A stretch of DNA of 55,299 nt, taken from Dehalococcoidales bacterium (lineage in GTDB: Bacteria > Chloroflexota > Dehalococcoidia > Dehalococcoidales > BS750m-G39). The notes under the pieces were generated by a model, which searched no databases, had not been told where the DNA came from, and saw nothing but the letters and a program-made list of their open reading frames with translations. Made by a program: the position numbers and the translations under genes. Shown in pieces: positions 2,609 to 39,333 of this stretch; positions within the stretch are counted from its first letter, which is position 1; every line of letters begins with the position of its first letter. Location: positions 1 through 55,299 of the forward strand of contig JAGMCH010000046.1 of the NCBI GenBank assembly GCA_023129255.1, given 5' to 3'.

Positions 2609-2890
2609 ACCCCATCCCCTTTATCCCCTTCCCCTTATCAAGGGGAAGGGGAAGAATATTCTAGAAGAGGGACTTCGTCCCTCATAAAACTCCCTGTAAT
2701 ATACCTCTAAGACTCCCTGTAATATTCGAGGCTTCGCCTCTTTAGACTTTTTCTTATTATCCCCCTCCCTAAGGGTGGCGGGTGGGAAAAGATATAAAAT
2801 GTATCTGGGACTTCTTACCCCACAAAAACTTTGTTGGGGGAACTCTCCAACTTAAGCGGGTATCTAAGAGGGGCTTTTAAAGCCCCTCTT
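2609..2890. repeat. Composite intergenic repeat: Pu/Py palindrome, GAGGGAC-TTC-GTCCCTC hairpin, imperfect G4 module, AAGAGGGGCTT hairpin
   Basis: 2609-2694 aligns with the reverse complement of 8059-8143 and with 24579-24660; GGGTGGCGGGTGGG-AAAAGA at 2773-2792. Confidence 0.85.
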
Positions 2891-2919
2891 TCTGCTTGCC
2901 TCTTACCTCCAGAAGCCGG

Positions 2920-3642
2920 TTATACGATATGTCCCCTTTCGTGGGGCGGCTTAGAAGGCTTCTCCTCTTCCTCCTGCTGGGTAGCCTGCCTACCTGGTAA
3001 CTCCTTAGCAAACTTGACGCTGGGGGGCTCAATCTCGGTTCTGGCAACCCGCCTCAGTTCGGCGATATTATCCCTGAAATTTTGAACAAAGGCGTTGTAT
3101 TCCACCGCCAGCCTATTATACTGGTCTATAGTCTCCGGCGGAATTTCAATACTCTGCGCCACCTCGCAAAACTGCTCAATAAATTCTTGATAATGATTGG
3201 TTATCAGCCACAGCTCACTTTGATAGGTGCGCAAATAAATAACAAACCTCCTGGTGCTGATATCACTCTCCACCCTGTCGATGAAACTATTACACCAGGT
3301 ATTGAAAATCCGCTGTCCCACCTCACACTCCCGTGCCCAACCCCAGACTCTGGCATTATCACTGGTTAACAGACTACGGATAACAACAAAGATAGACAGT
3401 GACGAATCACCCATAAATCGGCGATTAAAATATCCGGCTAGTTGCTTGAGCCTCAGCGATGCATGTTCCAGTTCCCTCTCCCCGGCTCTGGCTATGGCCA
3501 CCATTAAGCCGATGATAAGGATAATAACCAGAACCGCAGCCAGGACCCACATTTCCCACCCACATGCATAACCGACGAGAGCCAAGGCGGTGATTAAAAT
3601 CGGGCACCAGCCCCAGTTTACTATGAGCCTTAAGATATACAT
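2920..3642 (-). CDS. Hypothetical membrane protein (2 N-terminal TM helices, helical soluble domain)
   Basis: Long ORF; start reassigned to ATG 3642 (MYILRL...), G-rich RBS, directly downstream of argF. Confidence 0.75.
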   Translation of the reverse strand: MYILRLIVNWGWCPILITALALVGYACGWEMWVLAAVLVIILIIGLMVAIARAGERELEHASLRLKQLAGYFNRRFMGDSSLSIFVVIRSLLTSDNARVWGWARECEVGQRIFNTWCNSFIDRVESDISTRRFVIYLRTYQSELWLITNHYQEFIEQFCEVAQSIEIPPETIDQYNRLAVEYNAFVQNFRDNIAELRRVARTEIEPPSVKFAKELPGRQATQQEEEEKPSKPPHERGHIV

Positions 3643-3652
3643 AGTAGCCCCC

Positions 3653-4594
3653 CTAACGATAGCCAGCCAGCGGAATCTCCAGACCACCCAGTATTCCCGC
3701 CAGCAAGGCTTTCTGCATATGTAACCTATTTTCAGCCTGGTCAAAGACCACTGACCTGGGAGTATCTAAAATCCCCTCAGCTACCTCCTCACCGTGATGA
3801 GCCGGTAAGGGATGCATCAATATAGCGTCTTCCTTAGCTAAGGACAGTAGTTCACCATCCACCTGATAGCCGGCAAATACCTGGCGCCGGGCTTCAGCCT
3901 CAGTCTCCTGCCCCATACTGGTCCAGACATCAGTATAAACTACATCAGCCCCGCCGACTGCCTGGTGCGGCTCCTCGGTATAGAATATCTCACCACCACT
4001 ACTTGAAGCATTGCTCTGAGCCAGATTAAATATATTGTCCTCAATAGCATAGCCGGGGGGAGTGGCAATCCTGAAATTCATCCCAATAAGCGAAGCCGCC
4101 AGCATAAGACTGCGAGCCACATTGTTACCATCGCCAACAAAGGCTAAGGTCAAACCGTTTAGCTCCCCCTTCTTCTCATAAATGGTAAGCAGGTCAGCCA
4201 GAGCCTGGCAGGGGTGTTCCCGGTCGGAGAGGGCGTTTATCACCGGCACACCGGAATAACCGGCCAGAACCTCCAAGGTCTGGTGAGAAAAGGTGCGGGC
4301 AGCGATGGCATCTACATAGCGACTGAGCACTTGAGCCACATCTGAAATTGACTCGCGCTGCCCCAGACCAACCTCAGCCGGAGACAGATAAATTGTCTCC
4401 CCGCCTAGCTGTCGCATAGCCAGCTCAAAGCTGACCCGTGTCCGCAGCGAGGGCTTCTCAAACATTATCGCCAGCGTCTTGCCGCTGAGCATGGAAAGCC
4501 AGCCCTGGGCTTTCATATCAATGGCATCTGATATCAGCAGGCGAATATCCTCACCGCCGAGGTCAGCCACCGAGAGCAGGTCTTTCCCCTTCAT
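3653..4594 (-). CDS. argF: Ornithine carbamoyltransferase
   Basis: FEKPSLRTR, HPCQALAD, YTDVWTSMG, MHPLP and QAENRLH motifs. Confidence 0.95.
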   Translation of the reverse strand: MKGKDLLSVADLGGEDIRLLISDAIDMKAQGWLSMLSGKTLAIMFEKPSLRTRVSFELAMRQLGGETIYLSPAEVGLGQRESISDVAQVLSRYVDAIAARTFSHQTLEVLAGYSGVPVINALSDREHPCQALADLLTIYEKKGELNGLTLAFVGDGNNVARSLMLAASLIGMNFRIATPPGYAIEDNIFNLAQSNASSSGGEIFYTEEPHQAVGGADVVYTDVWTSMGQETEAEARRQVFAGYQVDGELLSLAKEDAILMHPLPAHHGEEVAEGILDTPRSVVFDQAENRLHMQKALLAGILGGLEIPLAGYR

Positions 4595-4683
4595 ACCTTA
4601 AGTATATCACGAAAAGATAATCATTCAACAGGGGCTTGACACCGTGCGCCCGGGTACCTAAGATGCCGTTGGAGGTTAAAAGT

Positions 4684-4938
4684 ATGGCCACTAAGGAAAA
4701 ATTTACCATAGACGGGGATAAAGTAGTTGAGAAGGTCAAGCAGCTCATCCACGAGGGCAACATCAGAAGGGTGCGGATTATTCACGAAGGACGGACGGTG
4801 CTGGAGATTCCACTCTCGGTAGGGGCACCAGCGGCAGCAGTGACTATTCTGGTAGCCCCGCTGCTGGCGGCGCTGGGTGCTTTCGCCGCCCTGGTAACCG
4901 AATGCACTATTGAGGTGGAGAAGATAGAAAAATCATAG
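4684..4938 (+). CDS. DUF4342-like small protein
   Basis: VEKVKQLIHEGNIRRVRII...EIPL...AALVTECTIEVEK pattern; GGAGG RBS before ATG 4684. Confidence 0.8.
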   Translation: MATKEKFTIDGDKVVEKVKQLIHEGNIRRVRIIHEGRTVLEIPLSVGAPAAAVTILVAPLLAALGAFAALVTECTIEVEKIEKS

Positions 4939-5019
4939 GCTCAAAGTGGAAGGACTGATTCGGAACTATTGTTATCGGCATTTGATAAGCCTATAATTAC
5001 GGTAAAGAGGAGGTGCAAG

Positions 5020-5265
5020 ATGGTGTTCGTAACGCTGTTATCACCGAAAGGGAAGGGAGAGGAAGCGGTCGATTACCTCAAGAAGCTCAAGGCTCCGGCA
5101 GGCATTACCATTCGTGATGTCTATTTCACCCTTGGTCGCTACGATGGCGTAATTATCTTTGAGGCTCCAGACGCCAACAAGGCGATGAACTTTGTTAAGG
5201 AAACCGGCTTTGCCACCGATTATACCGTGGAGACCCTCGCCGCCATCCCAGCCAAGGAACTGTGA
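5020..5265 (+). CDS. GYD-domain protein
   Basis: YFTLGRYDGVIIFEAPD motif; AGGAGG RBS before ATG 5020. Confidence 0.8.
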   Translation: MVFVTLLSPKGKGEEAVDYLKKLKAPAGITIRDVYFTLGRYDGVIIFEAPDANKAMNFVKETGFATDYTVETLAAIPAKEL

Positions 5266-5288
5266 AAGTCCGCTTTTTACCCCCACTC

Positions 5289-5297
5289 TGCTATAAT
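5289..5297 (+). promoter_or_regulatory. Extended -10 promoter (TGcTATAAT) 6 nt upstream of the polA ATG; probably leaderless
   Basis: TATAAT 5292-5297, ATG 5304, no Shine-Dalgarno. Confidence 0.65.
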
Positions 5298-5303
5298 TAA
5301 AGT

Positions 5304-8018
5304 ATGAAAAAGCCGCTGCTGGTTCTGTTTGATGGTAACGCCCTGATTCACCGAGCCTTCCACGCCATGCCCCCACTCACCGTGCGCCAGACCGGTGAGA
5401 TGGTCAGCGCCGTTTACGGCTTTGCCCTGATGCTGCTCAAGGTGATAAATGAGCTAAAGCCCACCCACTACGCCATCGCCTTTGACATGAAAGGCCCTAC
5501 CTTCAGACATGAGTTGTTTGACCAGTATAAGGCACAGCGACCCCCAACCCCCGATGAGCTGGTAGCTCAATTGGGGCGGGTAAGGCAGCTAGTGGAAGCC
5601 TTTCATATCCCTATCTTTGAGCTTGAGGGTTATGAGGCCGACGACCTCCTGGGTACCCTCAGCCAGCAAGCCAGCGGCCAGGACATTGATACCATCATCA
5701 TTACCGGTGACGCCGATATCATGCAACTGGTGTCGCCACGGGTAAAGGTCCTTTACCCCAAACCGAGGCGAGCCTTCAGCGACACCATGCTCTATGACGA
5801 AGAGGCGGTAAGCCAGAAGTATGGCGTCAAGCCGGAGCAGATTGCCGATTTTAAGGGACTGGTAGGTGATAAAACAGACAATATCTCGGGCGTACCTAAG
5901 ATTGGACCTGTAAATGCAGTCAATTTGTTAAGTAAATTCGGCTCCATTGAGCAAATCTATGACCATATAGATGAGGTGACGCCACCTAAACTTCAGGCAC
6001 TACTAAAGGAAAATGAAGCCATTGCCCGCCAGAGCAAGGAACTGGCGACCATCATTACCCGGACGCCGGTTAGCCTAAACCTTGATGACTGCCAAATCAG
6101 CCAGTATGACCGAAATCAGGTGACCGAGCTCTTCCGCGAGCTTGAGTTTGCCAGCCTGCTGCCCAAACTACCGCAGATAGAAACGGAAAAGACGGCACAG
6201 GTTGAAGCCAAGCCGCCGAAGGAAGACTACCACATCGTGAGTAAAACCGCCGATCTTGATAAGCTGCTAAGCCGCCTGTCAGCGGCTAAAACCTTCGCCT
6301 TTGACACCGAGACCACCAGCCTCGACCCGATGTCAGCCAAGCTAGTGGGCATATCTCTATCGCCAGCCCCGGGTGAAGCCTATTACATCCCGGTGGGGCA
6401 TGTGGGACTGGACCCGATAGGGCAACTACCCCTGGAACAGGTTACAGCACGGCTCAAATCCCTCCTGGAAGACCAGAAATTAGCCAAGCTGGCCCACAAC
6501 GGCAAGTATGATATGGCAGTGCTGGCGGAATATGGAATAACGGTTCAAAATTTGACCTTTGACTCCATGCTGGCTGCCTATCTGCTGGGGGAGAAATCTA
6601 TGGGACTAAAAGCCCTCGCCTTCGGCAAGCTGGCTATTGAGATGACGCCCATTAGCGACCTCATCGGCTCGGGGGCGAAGCAGATTTCCATGTCCCAGGT
6701 GGAAATCTCCCGTGCCGCCGACTACGCCTGCGCTGACGCCGATATGACCCTGAGGCTAGCGGAACTATTCGAGCCAGAGCTTCACCAGCAGGGGCTGTGG
6801 CAACTCTTCTCTGAGGTTGAGCTGCCGCTGGCGCCGGTGTTGGTTGGGATGGAAAGAAACGGAGTCGCCTTAGATGCCGAGCTATTGAGACAGATGTCGC
6901 ACCGCCTGGGTGGGCAGTTACTAAAGCTGGAGGTTGAGGTCTATAACAGTGTCGGGCACCAGTTCAACATAAACTCACCCCAGCAGCTGAGCGCCGTCCT
7001 CTTTGACGAGCTAGGACTAACGCCAGCCCGCAAGACCAAGGGTGGCTACTCCACCGGGGCGGCGATACTGGAAGAACTGCGTGGCGTTCACCCCATAATA
7101 GAATTAATCCTTGATTACCGCCAATTAAGCAAAATCAAGTCAACCTATATTGATGCCCTGCCTAACTTAATCAACCCCAAGACGGGTCGGGTACACACCA
7201 GCTTTAACCAGACGCGGACGGCTACCGGTCGGCTCTCCTCCAGCGAGCCAAATTTGCAGAATATCCCTGTCCGCGGCGAGCTGGGAAAAGAGGTGAGACA
7301 GGCGTTTATTGCCCCGAAGGGGTCTTACCTCTTAGCCGCCGACTACTCGCAGATTGACCTCCGCGCCCTGGCTCATCTGTCCCAGGATAAAAGCCTGCTG
7401 GCTGCCTTCCGCCACGATGAAGATATTCACAGTGCCACCGCGGCTCAGGTCTTCGGCGTAGAACCCTCAGCGGTAACGCCAGATATGCGCCGGGTGGCAA
7501 AAACAGTTAATTTCGGCGTCATCTACGGCATGAGCGAGTACGGCTTGGAGCAGGCGACAGGGCTATCGCGGGAAGAAGCTGCCCAGTTCATCGCCGCTTA
7601 CTTTGAGAAATACCCCGGAGTAAAGCAATACCTTGAATCGACCAAGGAACAGGCAAGGCAAGAGGGCTATGTTCAGACCATCCTCGGCAGAAGGCGCTCT
7701 ATCCCCGAAATCAATTCCTCTAACCGTCAGGTGCGGGAAGCCGCCGAAAGAATGGCGATAAATATGCCGGTGCAGGGCACCTCCGCCGATATCATCAAGG
7801 TTGCCATGATAAACCTGGACCGGGAGATAGCTAAACGCAAATTAAAGAGTAAGATGACACTCCAGGTGCATGATGAGCTTATCTTTGAGGTGCCCAAAAC
7901 CGAGCGGGAAGAAATGCGCCAGCTAGCTTCTGAACTAATGTCCGCTGCTCTGGAGCTCAGCGTCCCGCTAAAGGTGGACATCAAGACCGGCCAAAACTGG
8001 GGTGAGATGAAACCCTAA
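5304..8018 (+). CDS. polA: DNA polymerase I
   Basis: 5'-3' exonuclease (DGNALIHRAFHA), 3'-5' exonuclease (FDTETT) and Pol A motifs (ADYSQIDLR, AKTVNFGVIYG, QVHDEL). Confidence 0.98.
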   Translation: MKKPLLVLFDGNALIHRAFHAMPPLTVRQTGEMVSAVYGFALMLLKVINELKPTHYAIAFDMKGPTFRHELFDQYKAQRPPTPDELVAQLGRVRQLVEAFHIPIFELEGYEADDLLGTLSQQASGQDIDTIIITGDADIMQLVSPRVKVLYPKPRRAFSDTMLYDEEAVSQKYGVKPEQIADFKGLVGDKTDNISGVPKIGPVNAVNLLSKFGSIEQIYDHIDEVTPPKLQALLKENEAIARQSKELATIITRTPVSLNLDDCQISQYDRNQVTELFRELEFASLLPKLPQIETEKTAQVEAKPPKEDYHIVSKTADLDKLLSRLSAAKTFAFDTETTSLDPMSAKLVGISLSPAPGEAYYIPVGHVGLDPIGQLPLEQVTARLKSLLEDQKLAKLAHNGKYDMAVLAEYGITVQNLTFDSMLAAYLLGEKSMGLKALAFGKLAIEMTPISDLIGSGAKQISMSQVEISRAADYACADADMTLRLAELFEPELHQQGLWQLFSEVELPLAPVLVGMERNGVALDAELLRQMSHRLGGQLLKLEVEVYNSVGHQFNINSPQQLSAVLFDELGLTPARKTKGGYSTGAAILEELRGVHPIIELILDYRQLSKIKSTYIDALPNLINPKTGRVHTSFNQTRTATGRLSSSEPNLQNIPVRGELGKEVRQAFIAPKGSYLLAADYSQIDLRALAHLSQDKSLLAAFRHDEDIHSATAAQVFGVEPSAVTPDMRRVAKTVNFGVIYGMSEYGLEQATGLSREEAAQFIAAYFEKYPGVKQYLESTKEQARQEGYVQTILGRRRSIPEINSSNRQVREAAERMAINMPVQGTSADIIKVAMINLDREIAKRKLKSKMTLQVHDELIFEVPKTEREEMRQLASELMSAALELSVPLKVDIKTGQNWGEMKP

Positions 8019-8046
8019 GGGGAGAAGAGAGCCCAAGGGGTGAAAC

Positions 8047-8150
8047 CTCCCAATTATGGGGAGTTTAAGAGGGGCTTCGCCCCTCTTTCAAAATATTCTT
8101 CCCCTTCCCTTTGTCAAGGGGAAGGGGATAAAGGGGATGGGGTCACCCCA
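8047..8150. repeat. Intergenic repeat copy (inverted relative to 2609)
   Basis: GAGGGGC-TTC-GCCCCTC hairpin plus TCCCCTTCCCTT-TGTC-AAGGGGAAGGGGA palindrome. Confidence 0.85.
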
Positions 8151-8159
8151 CAAAAATAG

Positions 8160-8966
8160 ATGCCTGAGCTTCCTGAAGTCGAAACGATAAAGAACGAGCT
8201 AGCCCCCCACATTATCGGTCACACTGTCACTGGCGTCACCCTGTTCTGGCAGGGAATAGTGCGCCAGCCCTCGGTGGAGGAATTTTGCTCCCGCCTCATC
8301 GGGCAGAAAATAACCGGCGTGGAGCGGCGGGGGAAGTACCTAATCTTCGGCTTAACCAGCGGTGAGGCACTAATTAGCCACCTGAAGATGACCGGCTCAT
8401 TATTGCTAAAACCGCCTGATAGATTTATCAGGGCTATAATCCACCTGGACGGTAGAACCGAAATCTACTTCCGTGACCCGCGCAAGCTGGGGGTGATGTG
8501 GCTGGTGACGGACAAAAATACCGTTGTTGATAAACTCGGTCCCGAACCCCTGGAGGCTGGCTTTACCCCCCAAGTTTTGGCTCAGCGCCTGAGTAAGCGC
8601 ACAGCACCGATAAAGGCTCTGCTCTGCGACCAGAGCTTTGTGGCTGGCATCGGCAATATGTACGCCGACGAAGCCCTGTTTTCCGCCGGAATTCACCCAC
8701 TGCGGTCAGGGAAAAGCCTGTCACCGGAAGAAATTGAGCGTCTTCACCGGGCTATCCGTCAGGTTTTATCGGCAGCCATCGGCAATAAGGGAGCCAGCGT
8801 GGATACCTATTTTCGCCCCGGCGGTGAGATAGGCACCGCCCACTTTCAGTTTCGGGTGGCTCATCGGGGTGGGGAACCCTGCCCCGTCTGCGGCACGCAC
8901 CTCCAGCGCATACCCATCCGAAATCGGGGCAGCTACTTCTGCCCCAAATGCCAGCCACTCAAATGA
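8160..8966 (+). CDS. mutM: Formamidopyrimidine-DNA glycosylase
   Basis: MPELPEVET N-terminus, RRGKYL, HLKMTG, GIGNMYADE, C-terminal CPVC/CPKCQ zinc finger. Confidence 0.97.
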   Translation: MPELPEVETIKNELAPHIIGHTVTGVTLFWQGIVRQPSVEEFCSRLIGQKITGVERRGKYLIFGLTSGEALISHLKMTGSLLLKPPDRFIRAIIHLDGRTEIYFRDPRKLGVMWLVTDKNTVVDKLGPEPLEAGFTPQVLAQRLSKRTAPIKALLCDQSFVAGIGNMYADEALFSAGIHPLRSGKSLSPEEIERLHRAIRQVLSAAIGNKGASVDTYFRPGGEIGTAHFQFRVAHRGGEPCPVCGTHLQRIPIRNRGSYFCPKCQPLK

Positions 8967-8984
8967 CGCTCTGCGGCCCTCAGT

Positions 8985-9173
8985 CTATCCCCTTTTCCAG
9001 GCAAAGGGAATAAGAAAAACGACACAGCCCAGGAAGAAAACAACGCTGCCGACTAACCCCAAAGGACTGCCAGCAGCTACACTGTCAGCAATGAAAAAGA
9101 AACTACACACCAAGAAGAGCGCCCAGCCGGCGAGTTGAAACCGGCGTTCTCTTTCCTGCTTGCTCATGGGCAT
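8985..9173 (-). CDS. Small 2-TM membrane protein
   Basis: 62-aa ORF with two hydrophobic helices; AGGGG RBS; downstream of the CoA-transferase. Confidence 0.6.
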   Translation of the reverse strand: MPMSKQERERRFQLAGWALFLVCSFFFIADSVAAGSPLGLVGSVVFFLGCVVFLIPFAWKRG

Positions 9174-9201
9174 TGAACCCCCTTTCCCATTGACAAATAA
9201 C

Positions 9202-10380: not shown

Positions 10381-11267
10381 TTATTAAATTCGTCCAAAGT
10401 GCGACCCATCAGAATCCACCAATTCACAATACCACTCCCCTCACTGTCCTTACTCAAAGCCTCCTGTGCCTTCGGGAATAACCCACAATATTCCCGAACC
10501 ATGTTAGCAATTACAGGATTCATAATACCCGTTGTAACAGTTATATCCTCTTCTTGACTTTCACTCTTTCGAGTTTCTACCGATTGCAAAACGCTCAAAA
10601 AACTAGAGTGGGCTCGTCCAGCTAGAAGTCTGTATACATGCGAGGCTAGTACCTCACTTAACTTAGCATGAATAGCAATCTCGCGCCAAGATAAAACCTT
10701 TTTAATATCAGGATCCCATCGCCACAAGTTTAGTTCCTTGCCTTCAAAAAACCGCGTTCTCTGCGCCTCAGTAAGACCCTGAAAAACCGCATTTGACTTC
10801 AGCTTCTCGCGAAGCTGAGCAAGTTCTTCCTCATCTTCTACTCGGGTCTGTTCAAATTCTTCGATCACTGTAGGAAAATCGTGTCTCTCCAAGGCTCCTG
10901 CTGCCTTGTACATCCAATACCTATAATCCGCTTCATCTTTTGTCTGAGGTGAATAGAACACATGGTGGAAGGTTAGAAACGCCTCGAACGATGCTCTTGT
11001 TAGCACATCCATTGACACAAAATCAACAAAGCTAAATCTAAATGATGGAAGGTCCAAATTAGCGCCACGAGAAAGATAAAGTATGGTAACAGCATGATCA
11101 ATAAATTTATTAGAAAGGCCTTGTGCCATCGATAACCGTTCACGGTTCTCAGCATCAGTGGTAGCCAGGGGGCTACTTACGCGCATAGCTTGCGCGAGAA
11201 CGTTAAGTAATTTCTTATATGCTTGCTTGCTTTGTGCACCAAACTGTTCTAATTCTGACTGTGTCAT
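10377..11267 (-). CDS. AT-rich hypothetical protein, DUF5677-like
   Basis: LTRASFEA and YRLLAGRAHS patterns resemble DUF5677; start set at ATG 11267 after GGAGG; the longer ORF start lies inside a repeat. Confidence 0.65.
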   Translation of the reverse strand: MTQSELEQFGAQSKQAYKKLLNVLAQAMRVSSPLATTDAENRERLSMAQGLSNKFIDHAVTILYLSRGANLDLPSFRFSFVDFVSMDVLTRASFEAFLTFHHVFYSPQTKDEADYRYWMYKAAGALERHDFPTVIEEFEQTRVEDEEELAQLREKLKSNAVFQGLTEAQRTRFFEGKELNLWRWDPDIKKVLSWREIAIHAKLSEVLASHVYRLLAGRAHSSFLSVLQSVETRKSESQEEDITVTTGIMNPVIANMVREYCGLFPKAQEALSKDSEGSGIVNWWILMGRTLDEFNK

Positions 11268-11284
11268 ACCTCCCACCTCCTTTT

Positions 11285-11396
11285 TATCTATTCCCGCCCA
11301 CCACCCTCTAAGGTGTTGAAAGGGGCACCAGCCCCCGAGGGCGGGCGGGTGGGAAGAAAAACACCCGAAAATGGGGGGCAAAGGGGTGGGTAGATA
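11285..11396. repeat. Intergenic repeat with back-to-back G4 modules (imperfect on -, perfect on +)
   Basis: GGGCGGGCGGGTGGG-AAGAAAA at 11339-11360; CCCGCCCACCACCC at 11293-11306. Confidence 0.8.
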
Positions 11397-11406
11397 ACAT
11401 CACTAA

Positions 11407-12027: not shown

Positions 12028-12039
12028 AATCTTTAACCC

Positions 12040-12158
12040 TTTATCTATTCCCACCCGCCGCCCTTATGGGGTATTCAAGAGGGGCGAAGTCCCTCTTTTT
12101 TTATTCCCTCCCCCTCTCCTTTGAAGGAGAGGGGGATTAAGGGGGTGAAGTAGATAGA
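12040..12158. repeat. Intergenic repeat copy (minus orientation) with palindrome, GAA hairpin and imperfect G4
   Basis: GAGGGGC-GAA-GTCCCTC; TCCCCCTCTCCTT-TG-AAGGAGAGGGGGA; CCCACCCGCCGCCC at 12050-12063. Confidence 0.82.
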
Positions 12159-12162
12159 TACA

Positions 12163-16964: not shown

Positions 16965-17090
16965 TCTACCACCCCACCCATCATTATTCTAGAGTATAAA
17001 AGGAGGAGGGGTGGAAAGAGGGTCTTAAAGGGGTGCTAAACCCTATTGGGTGGGTGGGTGGGAAGAAAGACCTGGGGGGGGTGGGGTTCC
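16965..17090. repeat. Intergenic repeat with a perfect G4 module
   Basis: GGGTGGGTGGGTGGG-AAGAAAGA at 17048-17070, followed by a G8 run. Confidence 0.78.
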
Positions 17091-24541: not shown

Positions 24542-24780
24542 TATCACCCTTACCCCCTTTAAGTTTTTGATTAAGGTAACCCTCCCCCTTTATCCCCCTC
24601 CCTTAGATAAGGGAGGGGGAATTATTTATGTGAGAGGGACTTCGTCCCTCTAAAACTCCCTATTAAGATATTCAGAGACTGACGCCCCTCTTAAACACCC
24701 CTGAAAGCAGGGGTTTAAGGGCAAAGCCCTAATGGGAGGATGGGAAGAAAAAGATAAGTTAAAAATGGGGGGCTGGGGGG
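24542..24780. repeat. Composite intergenic repeat upstream of tRNA-Ser
   Basis: TCCCCCTCCCTTA-GA-TAAGGGAGGGGGA, GAGGGAC-TTC-GTCCCTC, AGGGC-AAA-GCCCT, degenerate G4 + AAGAAAAAGA. Confidence 0.85.
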
Positions 24781-24850
24781 AAAGTAAGACTTGCCCAGCA
24801 GGTTTGAGCAAGCTAAAGGGTTATGATACAATTACTATACCTGAAAATGT

Positions 24851-26265: not shown

Positions 26266-26631
26266 ATGAACCGGAATAAAATATTAAGCCTGGCGTTAAT
26301 AATTGGGTTGCTTATCACTTCTCTAGTATTTATCGGGGGTTGCTTATTCCCAGCAGAGGGAGAAGGAGGAGGGTTCGACTACACGATAATCATCTTCCTG
26401 GTGCTGATTTTTGCCATGTTCTATTTCCTCATGATTCGACCCCAGCGCAAGAGACAGAAGGAACACCAGCACATGGTGGAAGAGCTGAGGAGGGGAGATA
26501 GGGTAGTTACTGCCGGCGGCATCTACGGCGTGATTGAAACCGTCAGCGAGGATAGTGTAGTCATAAAAGTAGAATCGGGAGCGACGATGAGGGTGGCTTT
26601 AGGTAGCGTCGCCCTCAAGCGAGAGAGATAG
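26266..26631 (+). CDS. yajC: Preprotein translocase subunit YajC
   Basis: FYFLMIRPQRKRQKEH...L.RGDRVVTAGGIYG. Confidence 0.93.
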   Translation: MNRNKILSLALIIGLLITSLVFIGGCLFPAEGEGGGFDYTIIIFLVLIFAMFYFLMIRPQRKRQKEHQHMVEELRRGDRVVTAGGIYGVIETVSEDSVVIKVESGATMRVALGSVALKRER

Positions 26632-26639
26632 AATTTTTA

Positions 26640-26865
26640 ATCACCCTCACCCCCTTTAAGCACCCAGAAAAATCTTCGATTTTCCTGGGAACCCGCTTGT
26701 TCCCTCTCTCCCTCATAGAGAGAGGGGCAGACGCCCCTCTTAAACACCCCATAATTAACTTTGTCTTGCGCCTTAACTATCTCCTTCTATTCAGGAGAGT
26801 TTTATGGGCGAAGCCCTTATAGGGTGGGCTGGGTGGGAAGAAAGACAACTAAAAATAGGGGGGGT
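26640..26865. repeat. Composite intergenic repeat with module D nested inside and a perfect G4 module
   Basis: ATCACCCTCACCCCCTTTAAG shared with 24543; module D 26660-26694; GGGC-GAA-GCCC; GGGTGGGCTGGGTGGG-AAGAAAGA at 26822-26845. Confidence 0.85.
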
Positions 26866-26877
26866 TAGTGAGCAATC

Positions 26878-26994
26878 TCATAAATTTTGGGCCGGAGCCA
26901 GCCCGTGGGCACTGAGTAACCGCTTGTCAGCTAAAATATGGCTGGTGGCACCATCAGCAATTACCACTCCCCGGTCAAGAAAACTATGTTTCAC
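26878..26994 (-). pseudogene. Probable cbiQ'::'cbiO (ECF Co/Ni transporter) deletion-fusion remnant
   Basis: 38-codon ORF (GTG)KHSFLDR|GVVIADGATSHILADKRLLSAHGLAP; the tail resembles the C-terminus of ECF ATPases and the head resembles CbiQ N-termini (from recall). Confidence 0.55.
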
Positions 26995-31785: not shown

Positions 31786-31795
31786 GACAAAAAGC

Positions 31796-31987
31796 ATGGT
31801 TATGGAGATAAAGCTGGGCGATGTGGTTCGCCTCAAGAAGAAGCACCCCTGTGGCAGCTATGAGTGGCAGGTGGTCAGGCTGGGGGCTGATATCGGCATT
31901 AAATGCCTCAAGTGCCAGCGCCGCGTGCTCCTGGAGCGGGCGGTCTTCGAGCGCCGGGTCAAAACCTTTATCTCCAGAGGTCAGTAA
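31796..31987 (+). CDS. DUF951 family protein
   Basis: [16 protein letters not shown]...R.GADI.IKC.KC. Confidence 0.92.
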
Positions 31988-33207: not shown

Positions 33208-33235
33208 GGGGTAAACTAGTCGACTTTACCCCCTA
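33205..33235. terminator. Hairpin between convergent genes, containing both stop codons
   Basis: TAGGGGGTAAA-N9-TTTACCCCCTA perfect 11-bp inverted repeat. Confidence 0.6.
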
Positions 33236-33625
33236 CCCCTCATCCAGCAGCCGCTTTTCACCCTTTATCTTCTGCAGGTCGGTTATGTCCTGGGTAACCT
33301 CCAGCGTGCCGATATAGTTACCAGCCTTGCCCCTGACCGGGAAATACCTGATATATATCCGGCGCCCCTTAAGTTCAATCCAGAATTCGGCGACCTTCCT
33401 CTTGCCCGACTTTAAGTCGCTTACGACCTCGTTTACCTTATGAATGCTTTGCTGCGGATGGCACTGCTGCACCTTCCTGCCGATGACCGCCGGAGTGCGC
33501 CGGAATATCCGGTCATCATGCCGGCTGTAATACCTGACGGTATCAGTCCCGTCAACGAAGGTTATATCTACCGGCAGTGCGTCAAAGATAGCCTCAAGTG
33601 TCTCAGTTGACAGTGTTTCCAGCAT
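33233..33625 (-). CDS. Standalone PAS-domain protein (DUF438-associated PAS type)
   Basis: LPVDITFVD..D.VRYYS...IF.RTP.VIGR.VQ.CHP..S. Confidence 0.88.
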   Translation of the reverse strand: MLETLSTETLEAIFDALPVDITFVDGTDTVRYYSRHDDRIFRRTPAVIGRKVQQCHPQQSIHKVNEVVSDLKSGKRKVAEFWIELKGRRIYIRYFPVRGKAGNYIGTLEVTQDITDLQKIKGEKRLLDEG

Positions 33626-33734
33626 AGCTCACCCCCAATCCTTATTACCTAATATATACCACTTAGTCCGACTTGAGTCTAGCCTTTTCATAAAGCTATA
33701 CTGTGGTATAATATATCAAGTTGTTCTGAGGTAG

Positions 33735-34925
33735 GTGGTCGCTATGTGGGAATGGTTCATGGCTAACGGAATATGGATATTAATTGCCGTGGTGGCCGGG
33801 GTCATTCTGTTCTTTCTGCTCAAGCACTGGGCTCCCCGGGCGATAGAAAAGTTAGTACCCCTGCAATGGCGGGACCAACTGAGAGGCATCCAGAAGGTGG
33901 TAAGCTGGGTAATTATCGGTATCGGCGGGGTGATACTGGCTCTTGCCGTAGCTGCGGTTATCATCTCCCACTACGGCATGGATATCTCTCCGGCTCTGGA
34001 ACCGGTACGCGGCTGGCTACTGGAGCACGGCATTCTTATTTTAGTCATTATTGTACTATCCTATCTGGTTTATAAGATAGCCAAGGTACTAACCCCCAGA
34101 ATAGTTGGCAGGTATGTTAAAACAAGAGGCAAAGGGCGTCGTGCCCGGTCGGAGCATGCCAAGAGGGCAGAGACATTAAGTGGCGGCATCACCCAAATTA
34201 TCGCCATATTTATAATTGTAATTGCCCTTTTTATGATTCTTTCCGAGATAGGGATGGATATTACCCCCCTCCTAGCCAGCGCCGGAGTCGCCGGCATTGC
34301 CCTAGCCTTTGCCGCCCAGAACGCAATAAAAGACCTGATTGCTGGCTTCCTCATCATCTCCGAGAATCAGTTTGATGTCGGCGATGTCGTCCAAATCGCC
34401 GACAAAACCGGCATCGTGGAAGGGATTAATATCAGGCGGACTCTACTCCGAGACCTGGATGGTATTCTCCACATTGTCCCCAACGGTGAAATCAAGGTGG
34501 CCAGTAACTATACCATGATGTGGTCCCGGGTACACCTCAATATCAGTGTCGCCTACAAAGAAGACCTTGACCGGGTAATGGCCGTAATCAGAAGAGTATG
34601 GGAGGAAATGGCTTCAGAGCCAGATTGGGAACCTCATCTAATCTCAAAAACACCCTGGCTACTGCGGGTAAATGAGTTTGGGGACTCAGGAATTGTCATC
34701 AAGGTGGTGGGCGAAACCAAGCCCATGAGCCAATGGAATGTCATGGGGGAGCTGAGGAGAAGAATCAAGCGGGTCTTTGATGAGGAAGGGATAGAAATCC
34801 CCTGGCCCCACGTCAAGCTTTATATGGGTGAAAGTCCAGCAGAGACAGGGTTAACCTGTAAGGCTTGCTCTGGGGTCAACCCCCCGGGGAGTAAATTCTG
34901 CTCCCATTGCGGTGCCAAGCTTTAG
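33735..34925 (+). CDS. Small-conductance mechanosensitive channel with C-terminal zinc ribbon
   Basis: AGIALAFAAQN.IKD..AG, QFDVGDVV, IVPNGEI, GIEIPWP; tail CKAC...FCSHC. Confidence 0.9.
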   Translation: MVAMWEWFMANGIWILIAVVAGVILFFLLKHWAPRAIEKLVPLQWRDQLRGIQKVVSWVIIGIGGVILALAVAAVIISHYGMDISPALEPVRGWLLEHGILILVIIVLSYLVYKIAKVLTPRIVGRYVKTRGKGRRARSEHAKRAETLSGGITQIIAIFIIVIALFMILSEIGMDITPLLASAGVAGIALAFAAQNAIKDLIAGFLIISENQFDVGDVVQIADKTGIVEGINIRRTLLRDLDGILHIVPNGEIKVASNYTMMWSRVHLNISVAYKEDLDRVMAVIRRVWEEMASEPDWEPHLISKTPWLLRVNEFGDSGIVIKVVGETKPMSQWNVMGELRRRIKRVFDEEGIEIPWPHVKLYMGESPAETGLTCKACSGVNPPGSKFCSHCGAKL

Positions 34926-34935
34926 CCCGTCAAAG

Positions 34936-35002
34936 CAGAGAGAGGGACTGGAGGCGCTGCCACCAAATACGGCTGTGGGGCGGGATTGGGTGGGAAGAAA
35001 GA
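34936..35002 (+). repeat. Intergenic G4 module
   Basis: GGGGCGGGATTGGGTGGG-AAGAAAGA at 34977-35002. Confidence 0.72.
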
Positions 35003-35107
35003 GGTTGCTTCCAAGTTAGTCTCCTTGTCTTATTTCCAAGTGATGAGTTATAAAGAGGTTGCTTCCAAGTTAGTCTCCTTGTCTTATTTCCAAGTGATGA
35101 GTTATAA
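34998..35107 (+). repeat. Exact 54-bp tandem duplication spanning the ilvE promoter
   Basis: AAAGAGGTTGCTTCCAAGTTAGTCTCCTTGTCTTATTTCCAAGTGATGAGTTAT at 34998-35051 and 35052-35105; TTGTCT-N18-TATAAT in copy 2. Confidence 0.95.
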
Positions 35108-35136
35108 TGAACGCTATCTAACAAGGAGAGGATTGA

Positions 35137-36084
35137 ATGCCATCTTATGCCTATTTTCATAAGCAATTTGTCCCCCTATCCCAAGCCAAGATAGGGGTTA
35201 TGACCCAGGCTCTTCACTACGGCACTGCCGTCTTTGAGGGCATCAGGGGCAACTGGAACAGCCAGCAAAAGCAGATTTACCTCTTCCGTCTCAGGGAGCA
35301 TTATGAGCGGATGCATGACGGCTGCCAAGTGTTAAATATTGACCTGCCTTATACCATAGATGAGCTATGCCAGATAACCGGCGAGCTGGTGGAAAGGTGC
35401 CGCTTTCAAGAAGATGTATATGTCCGCCCCCTGGCTTACAAGAGTTCTGAATCCTTGGGCGTCCGCCTCCATGACCTGGATTGTGATTTCTTAGCCTTTG
35501 TTATTCCCTGGGGACCCTACCTGGATATGGACAAAGCCAAGTGCGGCATCTCTTCCTGGCGGCGGCCTGATTATAACGTAATCCCGCCCAACGCCAAGGT
35601 TACCGGGCTCTATGTCAATAACGCCTTTGCCAAATCAGAGGCCATCGGGAAGGGCTTTGACGAAGCCATCATGCTCACCCCAGACGGTCATGTCTCGGAA
35701 GGCAGTGGCGAGAATATCTTCCTGGTTCTGGACGGTAAACTGGTCACCCCGGCCAGCGACAATCATATCCTGATGGGGATTACCCGCGATACGGTGATAA
35801 AACTGGCGCAACAGGAGCTGGGCGTCGAGACCACAGAGAGAAAGGTTGACCCCAGCGAGCTTTTTGCCGCCAGCGAGTGCTTCCTCACCGGCACCGCCGC
35901 CCACATAACCCCCATAGGGGAAATAGACCACCGCCAGATAGCTAGCGGCGAAATTGGTCAAATAACCAAGAAGCTACAACAGCTCTATTCTGAGGTAATA
36001 CGAGGCGATAACCCAAAATACCTTGATTGGTGCACCCCGGTCTATAAGCACCCTGAAAACTCCTGGATTTTTCAGGGTGCTTAA
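35137..36084 (+). CDS. ilvE: Branched-chain amino acid aminotransferase
   Basis: LHYGTAVFEGIR, AKVTGLY, SEGSGENIF, ILMGITR, FLTGTAA. Confidence 0.95.
   Translation: MPSYAYFHKQFVPLSQAKIGVMTQALHYGTAVFEGIRGNWNSQQKQIYLFRLREHYERMHDGCQVLNIDLPYTIDELCQITGELVERCRFQEDVYVRPLAYKSSESLGVRLHDLDCDFLAFVIPWGPYLDMDKAKCGISSWRRPDYNVIPPNAKVTGLYVNNAFAKSEAIGKGFDEAIMLTPDGHVSEGSGENIFLVLDGKLVTPASDNHILMGITRDTVIKLAQQELGVETTERKVDPSELFAASECFLTGTAAHITPIGEIDHRQIASGEIGQITKKLQQLYSEVIRGDNPKYLDWCTPVYKHPENSWIFQGA
36045..36083. repeat. Palindromic module D overlapping the ilvE 3' end
   Basis: TAAGCACCCTGAAAA-N9-TTTTCAGGGTGCTTA perfect 15-bp arms. Confidence 0.75.
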
Positions 36085-36092
36085 AAGATAAG

Positions 36093-36662
36093 CTATTTTT
36101 TAGGCACACCTACCTGCAACGACTTGAGTAAGCAGATTACCTGGCAGCTTTCCTCCAGAGTGGTGGTGCAATTATGGGCTTCCTCAAGAAGTTGACCAAT
36201 GGCAAAGGTGCCATGACCATGAACCATGACAATCCGGTGCTTTTTTAATGCCTGGGCAATTATATCAGCCAGACCCCCGGATTCCACCTTCATATGCCAG
36301 CCCAGGACAGGTACCCTCCCCACTATAGTCTGACCTTCAGTATCAGTGGGCACAATCTCGGTTTCAGTCAGTGACAGGGCAACAGCATGAGGTGGGTGGG
36401 CATGAACAACGGCTAATGCCGGGGTCTCCCGATAAATAGCACGGTGGACAGCTAATTCTATTGACGCCAGCGGCGTATTGCGGTCATTTTTGTTTATCCC
36501 GGTCTCTATCAGGTCATGCTCCTCTAGACAGCCCAGCCGGCTAGTGCGGCGGGTAATGATGATACGCCCTCCCAGCCTGATACTCAGATTCCCGCTATGG
36601 GAGGAGACCAGCCCCTTGGTAAACAGGTCATGACCCACCGTCTGAAACTGAGATAAAATCAT
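36093..36662 (-). CDS. Class II aldolase/adducin-family protein
   Basis: SGNLSIR, ASIELAVHRAIY, VHAHPPHA, HGHG; start set at ATG 36662. Confidence 0.9.
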   Translation of the reverse strand: MILSQFQTVGHDLFTKGLVSSHSGNLSIRLGGRIIITRRTSRLGCLEEHDLIETGINKNDRNTPLASIELAVHRAIYRETPALAVVHAHPPHAVALSLTETEIVPTDTEGQTIVGRVPVLGWHMKVESGGLADIIAQALKKHRIVMVHGHGTFAIGQLLEEAHNCTTTLEESCQVICLLKSLQVGVPKK

Positions 36663-36702
36663 GGCTCCCCTTTTATGACATCCTTGCGGAGCATAAACCT
36701 CT

Positions 36703-37056
36703 TTACCCTCCTGAGTCAAGTTCTTCCGGGGAGGGTTGTTCCGCCTCCGGCTCGGCTTTAGCCGCTTTCGGCTTGGTTTTAGCCGAAGCCGAGGCCTGGG
36801 CTTCATTTAGCCTCCTCATCAATCGTGACTTGCGGCGGGCGGCATTATTGGGGTGGATAATCCCCTTTTCCGCGGCTTTATCCAGAGAACTGATGGCAAC
36901 CTCCACCGCTTGCCGAGCCGCCTCAAGCTCGCCCAAGAAAATAAGCCTCTCCGCCTTAGTTATATTGGTCTTACACAGACTACGAATAGGCTTATTTCTA
37001 AGTCTCTTTCTTGCCGTTACCCGTACCCGTTTTTGAGCCGATTTAATACCTGGCAA
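36703..37056 (-). CDS. rpsT: 30S ribosomal protein S20 (C-terminally extended)
   Basis: IKSAQKRVR...RLRNK...LDKAAEKGIIHPNNAARRKSRL; TTG start with GGAGG RBS. Confidence 0.95.
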   Translation of the reverse strand: MPGIKSAQKRVRVTARKRLRNKPIRSLCKTNITKAERLIFLGELEAARQAVEVAISSLDKAAEKGIIHPNNAARRKSRLMRRLNEAQASASAKTKPKAAKAEPEAEQPSPEELDSGG

Positions 37057-37067
37057 TCTCTACCTCC

Positions 37068-39236
37068 TTAGGTTGAGGGTTTTGGTTTTATAGTTGCTTC
37101 GTCTCCAACCCTGGAAACACCTATCACCCCTCGAATACCATCAATTTTTGCCATGAGCCGACTTAGCTGAGCTAGGTCCTTGGTTTGCAAGGTAAAATAT
37201 TCAGCAACAGTATGGTCATCATGGTGAACTGAGCTTACCGAGGCAATGTTAATCCCCTCCTCAGCCACAATAGTGGTAATGTCACGGATGAGCCCCACCC
37301 TGTCCCAGGCTTCAACCTGAATGTTAACCGGATATAGGGAATCGGTCTGCCCCCACTCCACGGCAACGAGTCGCTCTTTCTCATCCTCATGAACCACATT
37401 GTAGCAGTCCTGGCGGTGAATAGTCACCCCCCGACTGCGGGTAACATAGCCAATAATCTTATCCCCAGGCAAAGGGCGGCAACACTGGGCTAAATGGGTG
37501 ACTAAATTCCCCACCCCCAGCACCCGGATAGCTGATTCTGGCGGCTTGGGTGGGGCTGCCTCCGCCTTTACCGGGGGTGGCTCCTCCTGGGCGGATAGCT
37601 TCACCGCAACCTGATGAGTGGAAATGCCGCCATAGCCAATGGCTGCCAGAAAATCATCCAGACTATCATATTTGAACAGCTTAGCTAGCTCCTCCCGCTC
37701 GCTGGATCTTATCCCCAGATGCCTCATCTCCTTTTCCAGAAGCTCCCGACCCCGCTCAATATTTTCTGCCCGTTCCTGCCGCTTAAACCACTGGCGTATC
37801 TTCTCCCTGGCATGAGATGTTTTGATATAGCCCAGGTGGGGGTTCAGCCAATCCCGGCTCGGTCCTTTATCCCCCTTAGCTGAGACAATCTCTACCACAT
37901 CGCCGTTATTTAGCTGATAATTGTGTGGCACCAGCTTGCCATTTACTTTAGCTCCGATGCAGCGGTGCCCCAGCTCAGTGTGAACCCGATAGGCAAAATC
38001 AAGGGGGGTAGAACCCTTGGGCAAATCCTTTATCTCCCCTTTAGGGGTGTAAACAAAAACCTGGTCAATGAATATATCTGTTTTAACCGATTCCAGAAAC
38101 TCTTCAGCCCCGCTGAGCTCCCGGTGCCAATCAATTAATTGGCGCAGCCAGGCTATCCTCTCCTCGAAGTGCATATCCTCCTTCTCACCCTCTTTATAGC
38201 GCCAGTGAGCGGCGACACCATATTCAGCAATATGATGCATATCACGGGTGCGAATCTGAACCTCCAGAGGGATTGTGCCCAGACACATTACGACAGTATG
38301 CAATGATTGATAACCATTTGGTTTGGGATTGGCAATGAAGTCGTCAAACTCCCCGGGCAAAGGGCGCCACAAACTGTGGATAACGCCTAAAACATTATAA
38401 CAATCAGGCACCGACCCGACCAATATCCGAAGGGCGAGAAGGTCATGTATATCATCAAAGTGTTTATCCTGGGCAGCGTACCTCTCCATTTTCTGGTATA
38501 TGCTGTAGATATGCTTGGGTCTGCCTGATATCTCAGCCCTTAAGCCAGCCCGCTCAAACTCCCCTTCTAACATCTTGATTACCTGGGCGATAAACTTCTC
38601 CCGTTGAGCACGGCGGGCGGCAATCAAGTTAGCCACCTGGTGATATTCTTCCGGCTCCAAGTAACGGAAGGATAAATCCTCCAGCTGCCACTTTAGCTCC
38701 CATATCCCCAGACGATGAGCTAAGGGGGCATATATCTCCAGTGTCTCCTGGGCAATGTTGCGCTGCATTTCCGGCGTTAGCGCACTTAGCGTGCGCATAT
38801 TATGCAGCCGGTCAGCCAGCTTGATAAACACCACCCGAAGGTCCTCAGCCATAGCTACCAGCATCTTCCTCAGGCTCTCTGCCTGCGATCCCCTGGTGGC
38901 CGCAGTTGGAGCATGCAGGGAGAGCTTGCCCAACTTAGTGGTGCCATCGACCAGCTTGCTTACCTCAGAGCCAAACTTGGCTTCAAGCTCGGAGACAGGT
39001 ATGCCGCAGTTCTCAGGAACATCATGGAGTAAGGCTGCCGCCAGAGCGCTGGCATCAAGCTGAAGCTCGGCTAAGGTCAAGGCAACCTGTAGCGGGTGCT
39101 CTATGTAGGCATCACCTGACTTGCGCACCTGCCCCTCATGCGCCTTGGCGGCAAATTTGTAGGCATCCTCCACCAAAGCTATTTTCTCTGGCAGTAGATA
39201 CTCTTTAGCCTTGTCTATAAGCTCGGCAAGACTCAT
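37068..39236 (-). CDS. relA: Bifunctional (p)ppGpp synthetase/hydrolase
   Basis: HD domain (LLHDVPE), KLADRLHNMRT, NGYQSLHT, EVQIRT, TGS and ACT domains. Confidence 0.96.
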   Translation of the reverse strand: MSLAELIDKAKEYLLPEKIALVEDAYKFAAKAHEGQVRKSGDAYIEHPLQVALTLAELQLDASALAAALLHDVPENCGIPVSELEAKFGSEVSKLVDGTTKLGKLSLHAPTAATRGSQAESLRKMLVAMAEDLRVVFIKLADRLHNMRTLSALTPEMQRNIAQETLEIYAPLAHRLGIWELKWQLEDLSFRYLEPEEYHQVANLIAARRAQREKFIAQVIKMLEGEFERAGLRAEISGRPKHIYSIYQKMERYAAQDKHFDDIHDLLALRILVGSVPDCYNVLGVIHSLWRPLPGEFDDFIANPKPNGYQSLHTVVMCLGTIPLEVQIRTRDMHHIAEYGVAAHWRYKEGEKEDMHFEERIAWLRQLIDWHRELSGAEEFLESVKTDIFIDQVFVYTPKGEIKDLPKGSTPLDFAYRVHTELGHRCIGAKVNGKLVPHNYQLNNGDVVEIVSAKGDKGPSRDWLNPHLGYIKTSHAREKIRQWFKRQERAENIERGRELLEKEMRHLGIRSSEREELAKLFKYDSLDDFLAAIGYGGISTHQVAVKLSAQEEPPPVKAEAAPPKPPESAIRVLGVGNLVTHLAQCCRPLPGDKIIGYVTRSRGVTIHRQDCYNVVHEDEKERLVAVEWGQTDSLYPVNIQVEAWDRVGLIRDITTIVAEEGINIASVSSVHHDDHTVAEYFTLQTKDLAQLSRLMAKIDGIRGVIGVSRVGDEATIKPKPST

Positions 39237-39279
39237 ATTTCAAGTATAACGCAAGCGGACTGGTGGTTGCAAAAAATTA

Positions 39280-39333
39280 AGAGGGTTAAAGAGAGGCAAA
39301 GCCTCCATAGGGCGGGAGGGCGGGAAGAAAGAG
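39280..39333 (+). repeat. Minimal hairpin + G4 module between divergent relA and hisS
   Basis: GAGGC-AAA-GCCTC-CATA-GGGCGGGAGGGCGGG-AAGAAAGA. Confidence 0.8.

Follow-up and report, generated by a model that had tools for sequence, protein, structure and literature searches.

To our knowledge, G-quadruplex (G4) function in bacteria is evidenced at very few loci, the classic one being pilE. The short-loop motif with four runs of three G (G3 runs) is the most stable known class of G4 motif. Here we analyze a module built around that motif, in which a short hairpin is followed by four G3 runs and a purine tail, in a stretch of 55,299 nt from a Dehalococcoidales bacterium (GenBank assembly GCA_023129255.1, contig JAGMCH010000046.1, referred to as "the window"). 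The window is contig C46 of a 1,314,185-nt assembly (the source genome, label G000) that comprises 104 contigs and is 91% complete, so the absence of a gene from it means "not found". A sequence-only reading of the window had reported five sites in which four GGG runs are followed by an AAGAAA(G)A tail, at 11339, 17048, 26822, 34977, and 39310, all on the + strand, and we recovered each of them at that position and on that strand. On balance, these sites probably belong to an interspersed DNA repeat that is lineage-specific and non-autonomous, has no transposase, and contains a core capable of forming a G4; such a repeat would resemble repetitive extragenic palindromes (REPs), REP doublets forming hairpins (REPINs), and bacterial interspersed mosaic elements (BIMEs).

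Like the REPs, REPINs, and BIMEs of Proteobacteria, the module is a short hairpin repeat that is confined to spacers in high copy number, occurs singly and as inverted doublets, forms mosaics with other modules, and is divided into subfamilies with compensated stems. The source genome contains the high-copy, short imperfect palindromes in intergenic DNA that define REPs (109 copies, with 81 of 108 G4-pattern matches intergenic) as well as the inverted doublets that define REPINs (18 head-to-head pairs versus 0). According to the available portion of PMC4690160, some REPs carry G runs in one of their halves and tend to form tetraplexes, a structure put forward as the recognition element of the REP-associated tyrosine transposase (RAYT). 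Unlike REPs and REPINs, the module was accompanied by no RAYT that we could find in 25 family genomes (incomplete assemblies). Its best-kept part is the four-run G array 3′ of the palindrome, no GTAG-like 5′ tetranucleotide was identified in it, and its host lineage is Dehalococcoidia. What is new is a REP/REPIN-like repeat for which no RAYT was found and whose core is of the G4 class. We found no description of this repeat in Dehalococcoidia in a literature search outside which lay the supplementary REP lists of PMC12306157; in the accessible part of that article, Dehalococcoides mccartyi appears merely in a table of REP counts.

The pilE G4, as described in the available sections of PMC10094033, is a single locus that needs an adjacent small RNA promoter and silent donor cassettes. 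Our module shares with it the 16-nt motif class G3-N1-G3-N1-2-G3-N1-G3 and a position upstream of a promoter. The copies at C38 20873 and C101 4458 read GGGTGGGTTGGGTGGG, which is the pilE string published in those same sections, so the likeness in form that the sequence-only reading had drawn is exact for two copies. The pilE-like recombination system that it had also entertained does not hold: unlike pilE, the module is present as ~109 dispersed copies beside unrelated housekeeping genes, and there is no expression locus with silent cassettes. Among the core strings are (GGGT)3GGG and GGGTGGGTAGGGTGGG, which we take to be identical to the MYC promoter-upstream G4 element. Unlike the MYC element and d(GGGT)4, the module is a bacterial multi-copy repeat, and the G4 folding of its copies is a prediction; d(GGGT)4 is a well-studied parallel G4 (PMC10094033, in the portion available).

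A further comparison is with BoxC and other repeats prone to intrastrand triplexes. In the text that is accessible, G/C-rich triplex-prone repeats are tied to local instability and rearrangement (PMC4666352), and bacterial simple repeats with G/C tracts or G4-forming sequences are described as prone to non-B DNA (PMC4692102). The source genome has abundant G/C-tract repeats in its spacers as well, and other modules in it have the order pyrimidine, purine, mirror purine. In the G4 module, by contrast, a purine arm comes first, then a pyrimidine arm and the G array, an order at odds with the BoxC triplex scheme, and the module is not a tandem simple repeat.

Copy number and architecture of the module

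A short-loop G4 pattern matched the source genome 111 times, and ~90 of these matches belong to one repeat. In 143.5 kb of intergenic DNA there were 81 matches to the pattern and in 1.17 Mb of coding DNA 27; after shuffling, the intergenic sequence gave a mean of 0.28 and a maximum of 2. The dispersal claimed from the window extends to the whole genome. A hidden Markov model (HMM) built from 83 seeds returned 128 matches at E ≤ 1e-3 and, at the threshold that we used to define a copy (E ≤ 1e-5), 109 copies in 1.31 Mb. Eighteen of these copies lie inside called open reading frames (ORFs) and were retained in the counts; genes were called with a crude longest-ORF caller, and start codons and some small ORFs are unreliable. 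Within the window, GGGAAGAAAGA with no more than one mismatch is present 7 times versus 1.36 expected, a number that 0 of 100 shuffles attained, and one of these seven matches, at 37005 on the − strand, is unrelated to the module. The repeats probably break the assembly, which would make the copy number a floor. Many contigs (C23, C97, C27, C58, C101, C39, C79, and C67) end within a few hundred nucleotides of a module, and near-identical module pairs are found at the starts of C23 and C97.

The consensus order is 5′ flank, hairpin, 2–5 nt, GGG-Y-GGG-N1-3-GGG-T-GGG, and AAGAAAGACA, often followed by GTTAAAAAC and a second G block. The 5′ flank is of two types, GAGAGTTTTAGAG... or AAAGCAGGGGTTTAAG..., with the consensus (A/G)GAGAGTTT(T/A)AGAG or AAAGCAGGGGTTTAAG and no invariant tetranucleotide; the invariant part of the module lies 3′ of the hairpin. 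RNAalifold, run on 25 copies, paired the 3′ arm of the hairpin with the first G runs and found no compensatory changes. Because the MAFFT alignment loses the hairpin register, we used a per-copy stem finder in its place, which counted 558 Watson-Crick, 28 G-T, and 25 A-C pairs in the stems. Neighboring copies on opposite strands are directly observed as head-to-head doublets and never tail to tail (p = 8e-6), with a spacing of 52–136 nt, and the doublets form palindromes of ~170 bp. The module is also found alone or joined to other module types, and its hairpin and loop subfamilies recur at many loci.

Within the core, the G runs are kept far better than the loops, as the window sites had already suggested. 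The canonical intramolecular G4 motif (four runs of at least three G with short loops on one strand) was found in 84 of the 109 copies, all with four G3 runs, and 331 of the 336 runs in these 84 copies are exactly GGG. Loop 1 is T in 48 of them, C in 32, A in 3, and TT in 1; loop 2 takes 13 forms of 1–3 nt; and loop 3 is T in 73. To avoid circularity, copies were also detected independently of the core with separate flank models. This gave 40 left-right flank pairs, 34 of which enclose four intact runs; most of the other six are short of entire GGGN units. Genus g7 has hairpins, spacers, and tails of its own, in three subfamilies, and nevertheless retains GGG-Y-GGG-N2-GGG-Y-GGG, in a comparison that is biased toward intact cores because the model used for detection contained the core. 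A G4 fold tolerates loops of variable length between invariant G3 runs and a duplex-binding protein would not; a predicted G4 fold is therefore the simplest reading of the core conservation. A neutral relic of a miniature inverted-repeat transposable element (MITE) is not supported by the conservation of the G runs.

Distribution and turnover among relatives

The module is a family-wide feature. Model R1 matched 24 of 24 genomes of the same family with 3 to >100 copies each, where counts near 100–110 are probably floors as the scan scored ~103 candidates per genome, and copies within one genus ranged from 14 to 88. In contrast, 5 of 16 genomes from other families of the order had 1–4 weak matches each. 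The exact pattern was present in 13 of the 24 same-family genomes versus 0 of the 16 other-family genomes, and a reversed control gave 0. When one genome per species was scanned, 63 of 80 among the matches listed were metagenome-assembled genomes (MAGs) of Dehalococcoidia or Dehalococcoidales. Several MAGs that carry the submitter label Deltaproteobacteria have pattern coordinates identical to those of family members placed with Dehalococcoidia relatives, and these labels are probably wrong.

Individual copies turn over rapidly. The nearest genome, G001, has a median protein identity of 83% to the source genome and gave 26 copies when searched with the same HMM. The source genome has 78 spacers with a module; 36 of them are syntenic in G001, where 6 of the 36 have kept one. 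Alignments with G001 showed that some modules are replaced by other module types. At C43 9577–9698, two modules of the source genome separate a pair of genes whose distance in G001 is 19 nt. The two genomes also differ in the start of the downstream gene: in the source genome, its frame apparently opens at a TTG within GGGGGGTGGGGTTGAAAAAAAC, and the G block would serve as its ribosome-binding site. At C95 9228, half of the hairpin is swapped beside a retained core, and at window position 24744 a unit of tail plus G block has been gained or lost between orthologous sites. The copy at 24734 is degenerate, as the sequence-only reading had noted, and its G001 orthologue has three G runs; the copy at 2773, which had been paired with it, belongs instead to a sister family. 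In 3 of 6 orthologous comparisons, the junctions of swaps or indels coincided with G blocks, consistent with recombination between copies. The modules ahead of the conserved hisS promoter and those past the rluD-like gene differ from relative to relative.

Candidate explanations for the repeat

There is strong evidence that the module is a lineage-specific repeat copied by descent, with fast turnover, REPIN-like doublets, and BIME-like mosaics; it is the recurrence of hairpin and loop subfamilies that points to copying by descent. Since its orientation ignores transcription, we infer that both the action and the copying of the element take place at the DNA level. In co-directional spacers, single copies are co-oriented with the genes 19 times and anti-oriented 15 times. 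The stems contain 28 G-T versus 25 A-C pairs, so neither strand is favored. The copy at 39310 lies between divergent −35 boxes, and Rfam covariance models gave no match to the module at E ≤ 1, two tRNAs alone reaching the gathering score. On strand separation, the four G3 runs next to the hairpin would be able to fold into a very stable parallel G4, and the conserved cis core formed by hairpin and runs would be the part required for copying or homogenization, whether by recombination or gene conversion between copies or by a mobilizer yet to be recognized. Most copies that persist would lie in core-genome spacers ahead of promoters, a location in which they are tolerated; at times they may supply a ribosome-binding site or an A-rich stretch upstream of a promoter.

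Several observations weigh against this explanation or against the part that the fold plays in it. Family searches in the source genome and its relatives found no mobilizing enzyme, and 8 comparisons of a filled with a short site revealed other modules or ragged ends but never a cleanly empty site with its target duplication. In the source genome, the T of loop 3 and the AAGAAA tail vary no more than the G runs do, which fits sequence-specific recognition or recent common descent equally well as a fold. Nine of the 109 copies have three runs, two orthologous copies have three or fewer, and the ~21 sister copies all have GG in run 2. The three-run copies, the GG-bearing sister family, and the constant tail count against a strict requirement for a G4. 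ViennaRNA included a G4 in the minimum-energy fold of 84 of 85 copies, with RNA parameters applied to a DNA element. Finally, the excess of modules in divergent over convergent spacers (26/101 versus 4/47, p = 0.016) also fits a host function related to promoters.

A more far-reaching possibility, to which we give limited credence, is that the hairpin and G4 array are a working DNA-structure device, in which a cruciform arm and a parallel G4 would form through supercoiling in the wake of diverging polymerases or through replication. Such a device could stall or nick DNA and provoke gene conversion between copies, which would make it a transposase-free repeat that propagates and homogenizes itself, or it could serve the host as a torsion-responsive element upstream of promoters. 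If this were true, there would be a family-wide G4 system of ~100 copies in a bacterium that is streamlined and whose assembly gave no RecQ or Pif1 match. This small-genome family of Dehalococcoidia retains up to ~100 copies per genome of the most stable motif class. The many copies, the subfamilies, and the presence or absence of copies among relatives amount to a natural replicated experiment, which could reveal whether the G4 fold is selected in bacterial DNA and whether it drives the spread of a repeat without a transposase. The significance would be high if the fold were shown to drive recombination or promoter behavior. In practical terms, the repeats occupy much of the intergenic DNA, break assemblies, alter gene starts and spacers, and provide ribosome-binding sites, and they therefore matter for the annotation and binning of Dehalococcoidia MAGs.

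The alternative that survives best, although we consider it unlikely, is a DNA structural element of promoter regions selected by the host. By analogy with promoter-upstream G4s in eukaryotes, the hairpin (as a cruciform) and the G4 would be extruded when diverging RNA polymerases leave negative supercoils behind them, and would then take up or sense torsion or shield neighboring promoters from one another. Among spacers of at least 120 nt, 26 of 101 divergent, 32 of 217 co-directional, and 4 of 47 convergent ones bear a module, a frequency that tracks the expected negative supercoiling; however, divergent spacers are simply longer (median 158 nt versus 39 and 25 nt). The copy at 39310 is placed exactly between the divergent relA and hisS core promoters, and 5 of 5 genomes have some G-rich module upstream of the conserved hisS promoter. 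A promoter-like site faces the tail side in 37 copies and the hairpin side in 19. The distance is variable (13–95 nt from the tail to the −35 box) and shows no preferred spacing, and an element acting at a fixed distance from the promoter was rejected on this ground. A host element would suit the free orientation relative to genes and the retention of the G core across genera despite changed flanks. On the other hand, 30 of the 36 syntenic sites are module-free in the nearest genome and some family genomes have 3–16 copies, so individual copies are dispensable, and the recurring subfamilies with shared flanks point to copying and not to independent selection.

The same explanation would accommodate the preference of the copies for core-genome neighborhoods, a point on which the association with foreign-looking genes proposed from the window was reversed. 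Copies avoid lineage-specific genes: a flank without a match in G001 was found for 24 of 69 module-bearing spacers versus 167 of 309 module-free spacers (p = 0.005). Synteny breaks are not enriched either, as the neighbors are still adjacent in 34 of 45 module spacers versus 94 of 142 others. Contig C77 of the source genome (28.7 kb) has seven Phage_integrase matches and no module. It is probably an integrated element or a plasticity region, consistent with modules avoiding recently acquired DNA.

An RNA-level element appears improbable. It could act as a 5′ leader or standby site with a G block resembling a ribosome-binding site when co-oriented, as a C-rich Rho-loading site with a hairpin when anti-oriented, or as an mRNA-stabilizing intercistronic stem-loop in the manner of E. 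coli REPs. At C86 10001, at C97 23699, and, by comparison with G001, at C43 9670, a copy does provide the following gene with its ribosome-binding site or start codon, and among single copies the tail points to a gene start in 47 cases and to a gene end in 20. Moreover, the window copies at 11339, 17048, and 26822 give a long C-rich, G-poor stretch right past the stop of a − strand gene, and the sister variant is strand-specific (15/17). In contrast, the main module has no strand preference in co-directional spacers (19 versus 15) and no G-U versus A-C asymmetry in its stems (28 versus 25), several copies are upstream of both flanking promoters and should escape transcription, and there is no Rfam match. 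After the hairpin comes TATA-GGG on one strand and CTCTAAAAC on the other, without a T run on either; together with an orientation independent of the genes, this does not fit an intrinsic terminator. As for a promoter whose small RNA would start in the G4, as at pilE, the TATAGG of the spacer resembles a −10 box, but there is no acceptable −35 box 16–18 nt upstream of it.

More doubtful still is a classical REP/REPIN moved by a RAYT (a Y1 HUH transposase), or a MITE of a known insertion sequence family, with a transposase gene that is merely unassembled in the MAGs. Such an origin would account for high-copy hairpin repeats in spacers, for the inverted doublets (18 versus 0), and for contigs that often end at modules, and REPs with G runs and a tendency to form tetraplexes are described in the available portion of PMC4690160. 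However, Y1_Tnp (PF01797, RAYT) had no match in the source genome or in any of the 24 family genomes, which are incomplete assemblies but in several cases 93–97% complete. As a control, the same search gave matches in 6 of 14 known control genomes and in 2 other-family genomes. The source genome had no match to OrfB_IS605, DDE_Tnp_1, rve, or RVT_1, nor to RecQ_Zn_bind, PIF1, or DUF559. Reverse transcriptases, TnpB, DDE transposases, RecQ, Pif1, and DUF559 were thus not found as trans factors in this 91% complete assembly, and none of the partner genes that the sequence-only reading had envisaged (HUH/RAYT in the 25 family genomes; DUF559 or RecQ-like in the source genome) was matched. With respect to MITEs, the autonomous transposase partner was not found (no DDE_Tnp_1, rve, or OrfB_IS605), and the doublets are long inverted repeats; the 8 site comparisons showed no clean target duplication. 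Tyrosine recombinases were rejected as mobilizers: the source genome has 12 Phage_integrase matches, and there are 2–3 in genomes with >100 modules and 6 in a genome with 3 modules.

Least credible of all is a pilE-type programmed recombination initiator or a replichore-polarized signal similar to Chi or the FtsK orienting polar sequences (KOPS): the motif has the form of the pilE G4 (available part of PMC10094033), 7 of 7 window copies lie on one strand, and there is a weak genome-wide bias to the C-rich strand, but this is largely refuted by the copy number (~109 dispersed copies near housekeeping genes, with no expression locus and silent cassettes) and by the weak polarity (58–66%), and the motif is confined to spacers, not spread along the replichore, in a genome with no RecQ match. 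Across the genome, 63 of 109 copies have their G strand on the locally C-rich strand (p = 0.13); among the 70 copies with |skew| above 0.03, the number is 46 (p = 0.012). The strand polarity first seen in the window is therefore a weak bias, which the 7 of 7 overstate.

Window copies and other spacer repeats

The positions of the copies in the window are given in Table 1. Their neighbors are relA/spoT, hisS, an rluD-like gene, yajC, a radical SAM gene, an MscS gene, and tRNA-Ser. dnaA is at 45394–46716 on the − strand, and the GC skew is negative over 1–45 kb and positive beyond, with the sign change at dnaA. The + strand is thus C-rich where the window copies sit, as had been stated from the sequence, and it is probable that the origin lies at dnaA and the skew switch, with the copies on the C-rich strand to its left. 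A hairpin precedes four of the five four-GGG sites (11339, 17048, 26822, and 39310) and also the degenerate core at 24734, in line with the claim that most copies have one; the exception is 34977, which was missed by the whole-module HMM.

Table 1. Copies of the module and of its sister variant in the window (positions in nucleotides).
Feature	Position	Strand	Parts	Adjoining gene
Sister-variant copy	2728..2799	+	hairpin 2728-2740; core 2773-2786 = GGGTGGCGGGTGGG; tail 2787-2799	
Sister-variant copy	11281..11306 (core 11293)	-	GGGTGGTGGGCGGG + AATAGATAAAAA	
Full module	11322..11378	+	hairpin 11322-11335; G core 11339-11353 = GGGCGGGCGGGTGGG; purine tail 11354-11363; second G block 11373-11378	
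Sister-variant copy	12040..12093	-	hairpin 12081-12093; core 12050-12063; tail 12040-12049	adjoins GNAT acetyltransferase gene start
Full module	17030..17086	+	hairpin 17030-17043; core 17048-17062 = (GGGT)3GGG; tail 17063-17070; second G block 17074-17086	
Type-B module, degenerate core	24698..24789	+	hairpins 24698-24713, 24719-24729; core 24734-24744 = GGGAGGATGGG; tail 24745-24766; G block 24767-24780, second tail 24781-24789	
Full module	26806..26864	+	hairpin 26806-26816; core 26822-26837; tail 26838-26857; G block 26858-26864	
Core and tail alone, no hairpin	34977..35002	+	GGGGCGGGATTGGGTGGG AAGAAAGA	52 nt past MscS-like gene stop
Full short-tail module	39293..39345	+	hairpin 39293-39305; core 39310-39324; tail 39325-39345	

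The nhmmer match that covers the 11322 module spans C46 11286–11411. The sister copy next to it is immediately upstream of the ribosome-binding site and ATG of a − strand gene ending at 11264, and its C-rich face is 16 nt ahead of the hairpin of the 11322 module. The module at 17030 lies between the stop of a pseudouridine synthase gene (17099, − strand) and a conserved TGGTAGAAT promoter. This promoter-like sequence, CTAGAAT-N16-TGGTAGAAT at 16965–17010 (− strand), is upstream of a STAND/AAA ATPase gene and is kept in the relatives G010 and G008, where the adjoining modules differ. The type-B module is upstream of the tRNA-Ser promoter. The module at 26806 is within a spacer of 352 nt (26631–26984) from yajC to the radical-SAM gene, which measures 22 nt in G001. 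The −35 boxes on the two sides of the 39310 copy belong to the seemingly leaderless relA/spoT (39267–39272, − strand) and to hisS (39357–39362, + strand). For relA/spoT, TTGCAA, 17 nt, and TTATAC are followed by the ATG ~7 nt on (39236–39290, − strand), an arrangement that is kept in G001.

The sister family, GGGTGGCGGGTGGG followed by AAAAGATATAAAA, has ~21 copies genome-wide with the form GGG-N-GG-N-GGG-N-GGG plus AA(A/T)AGATATAAAAGG. Its window copies are those at 2773, 11293, and 12050, and the latter two are on the − strand, as originally described. It is strand-specific, which the main module is not. Of 17 co-directional spacers with a sister copy, 15 show the C-rich face of that copy on the sense strand, 28–72 nt past a stop codon. 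The sister variant is often paired with the main module into a long stem.

The main module shares the spacers with further abundant G/C-tract repeats. The intergenic 11-mers that occur most often stem from a different repeat; among them is GGAGAGGGGGA, found 76 times in the source genome. That repeat reads TCCCCCTCTCC-loop-GGAGAGGGGGA, and in many cases GGGGGTGAGG, a mirror of the purine arm, comes next; window examples are at 24560–24605 and 2610–2634. An intrastrand triplex reading of the G4 module was rejected because its block order is unfit; the reading does fit another module type. The order TCCCCCTCTCC-loop-GGAGAGGGGGA-GGGGGTGAGG is the block order of intrastrand triplex (BoxC-like) motifs.

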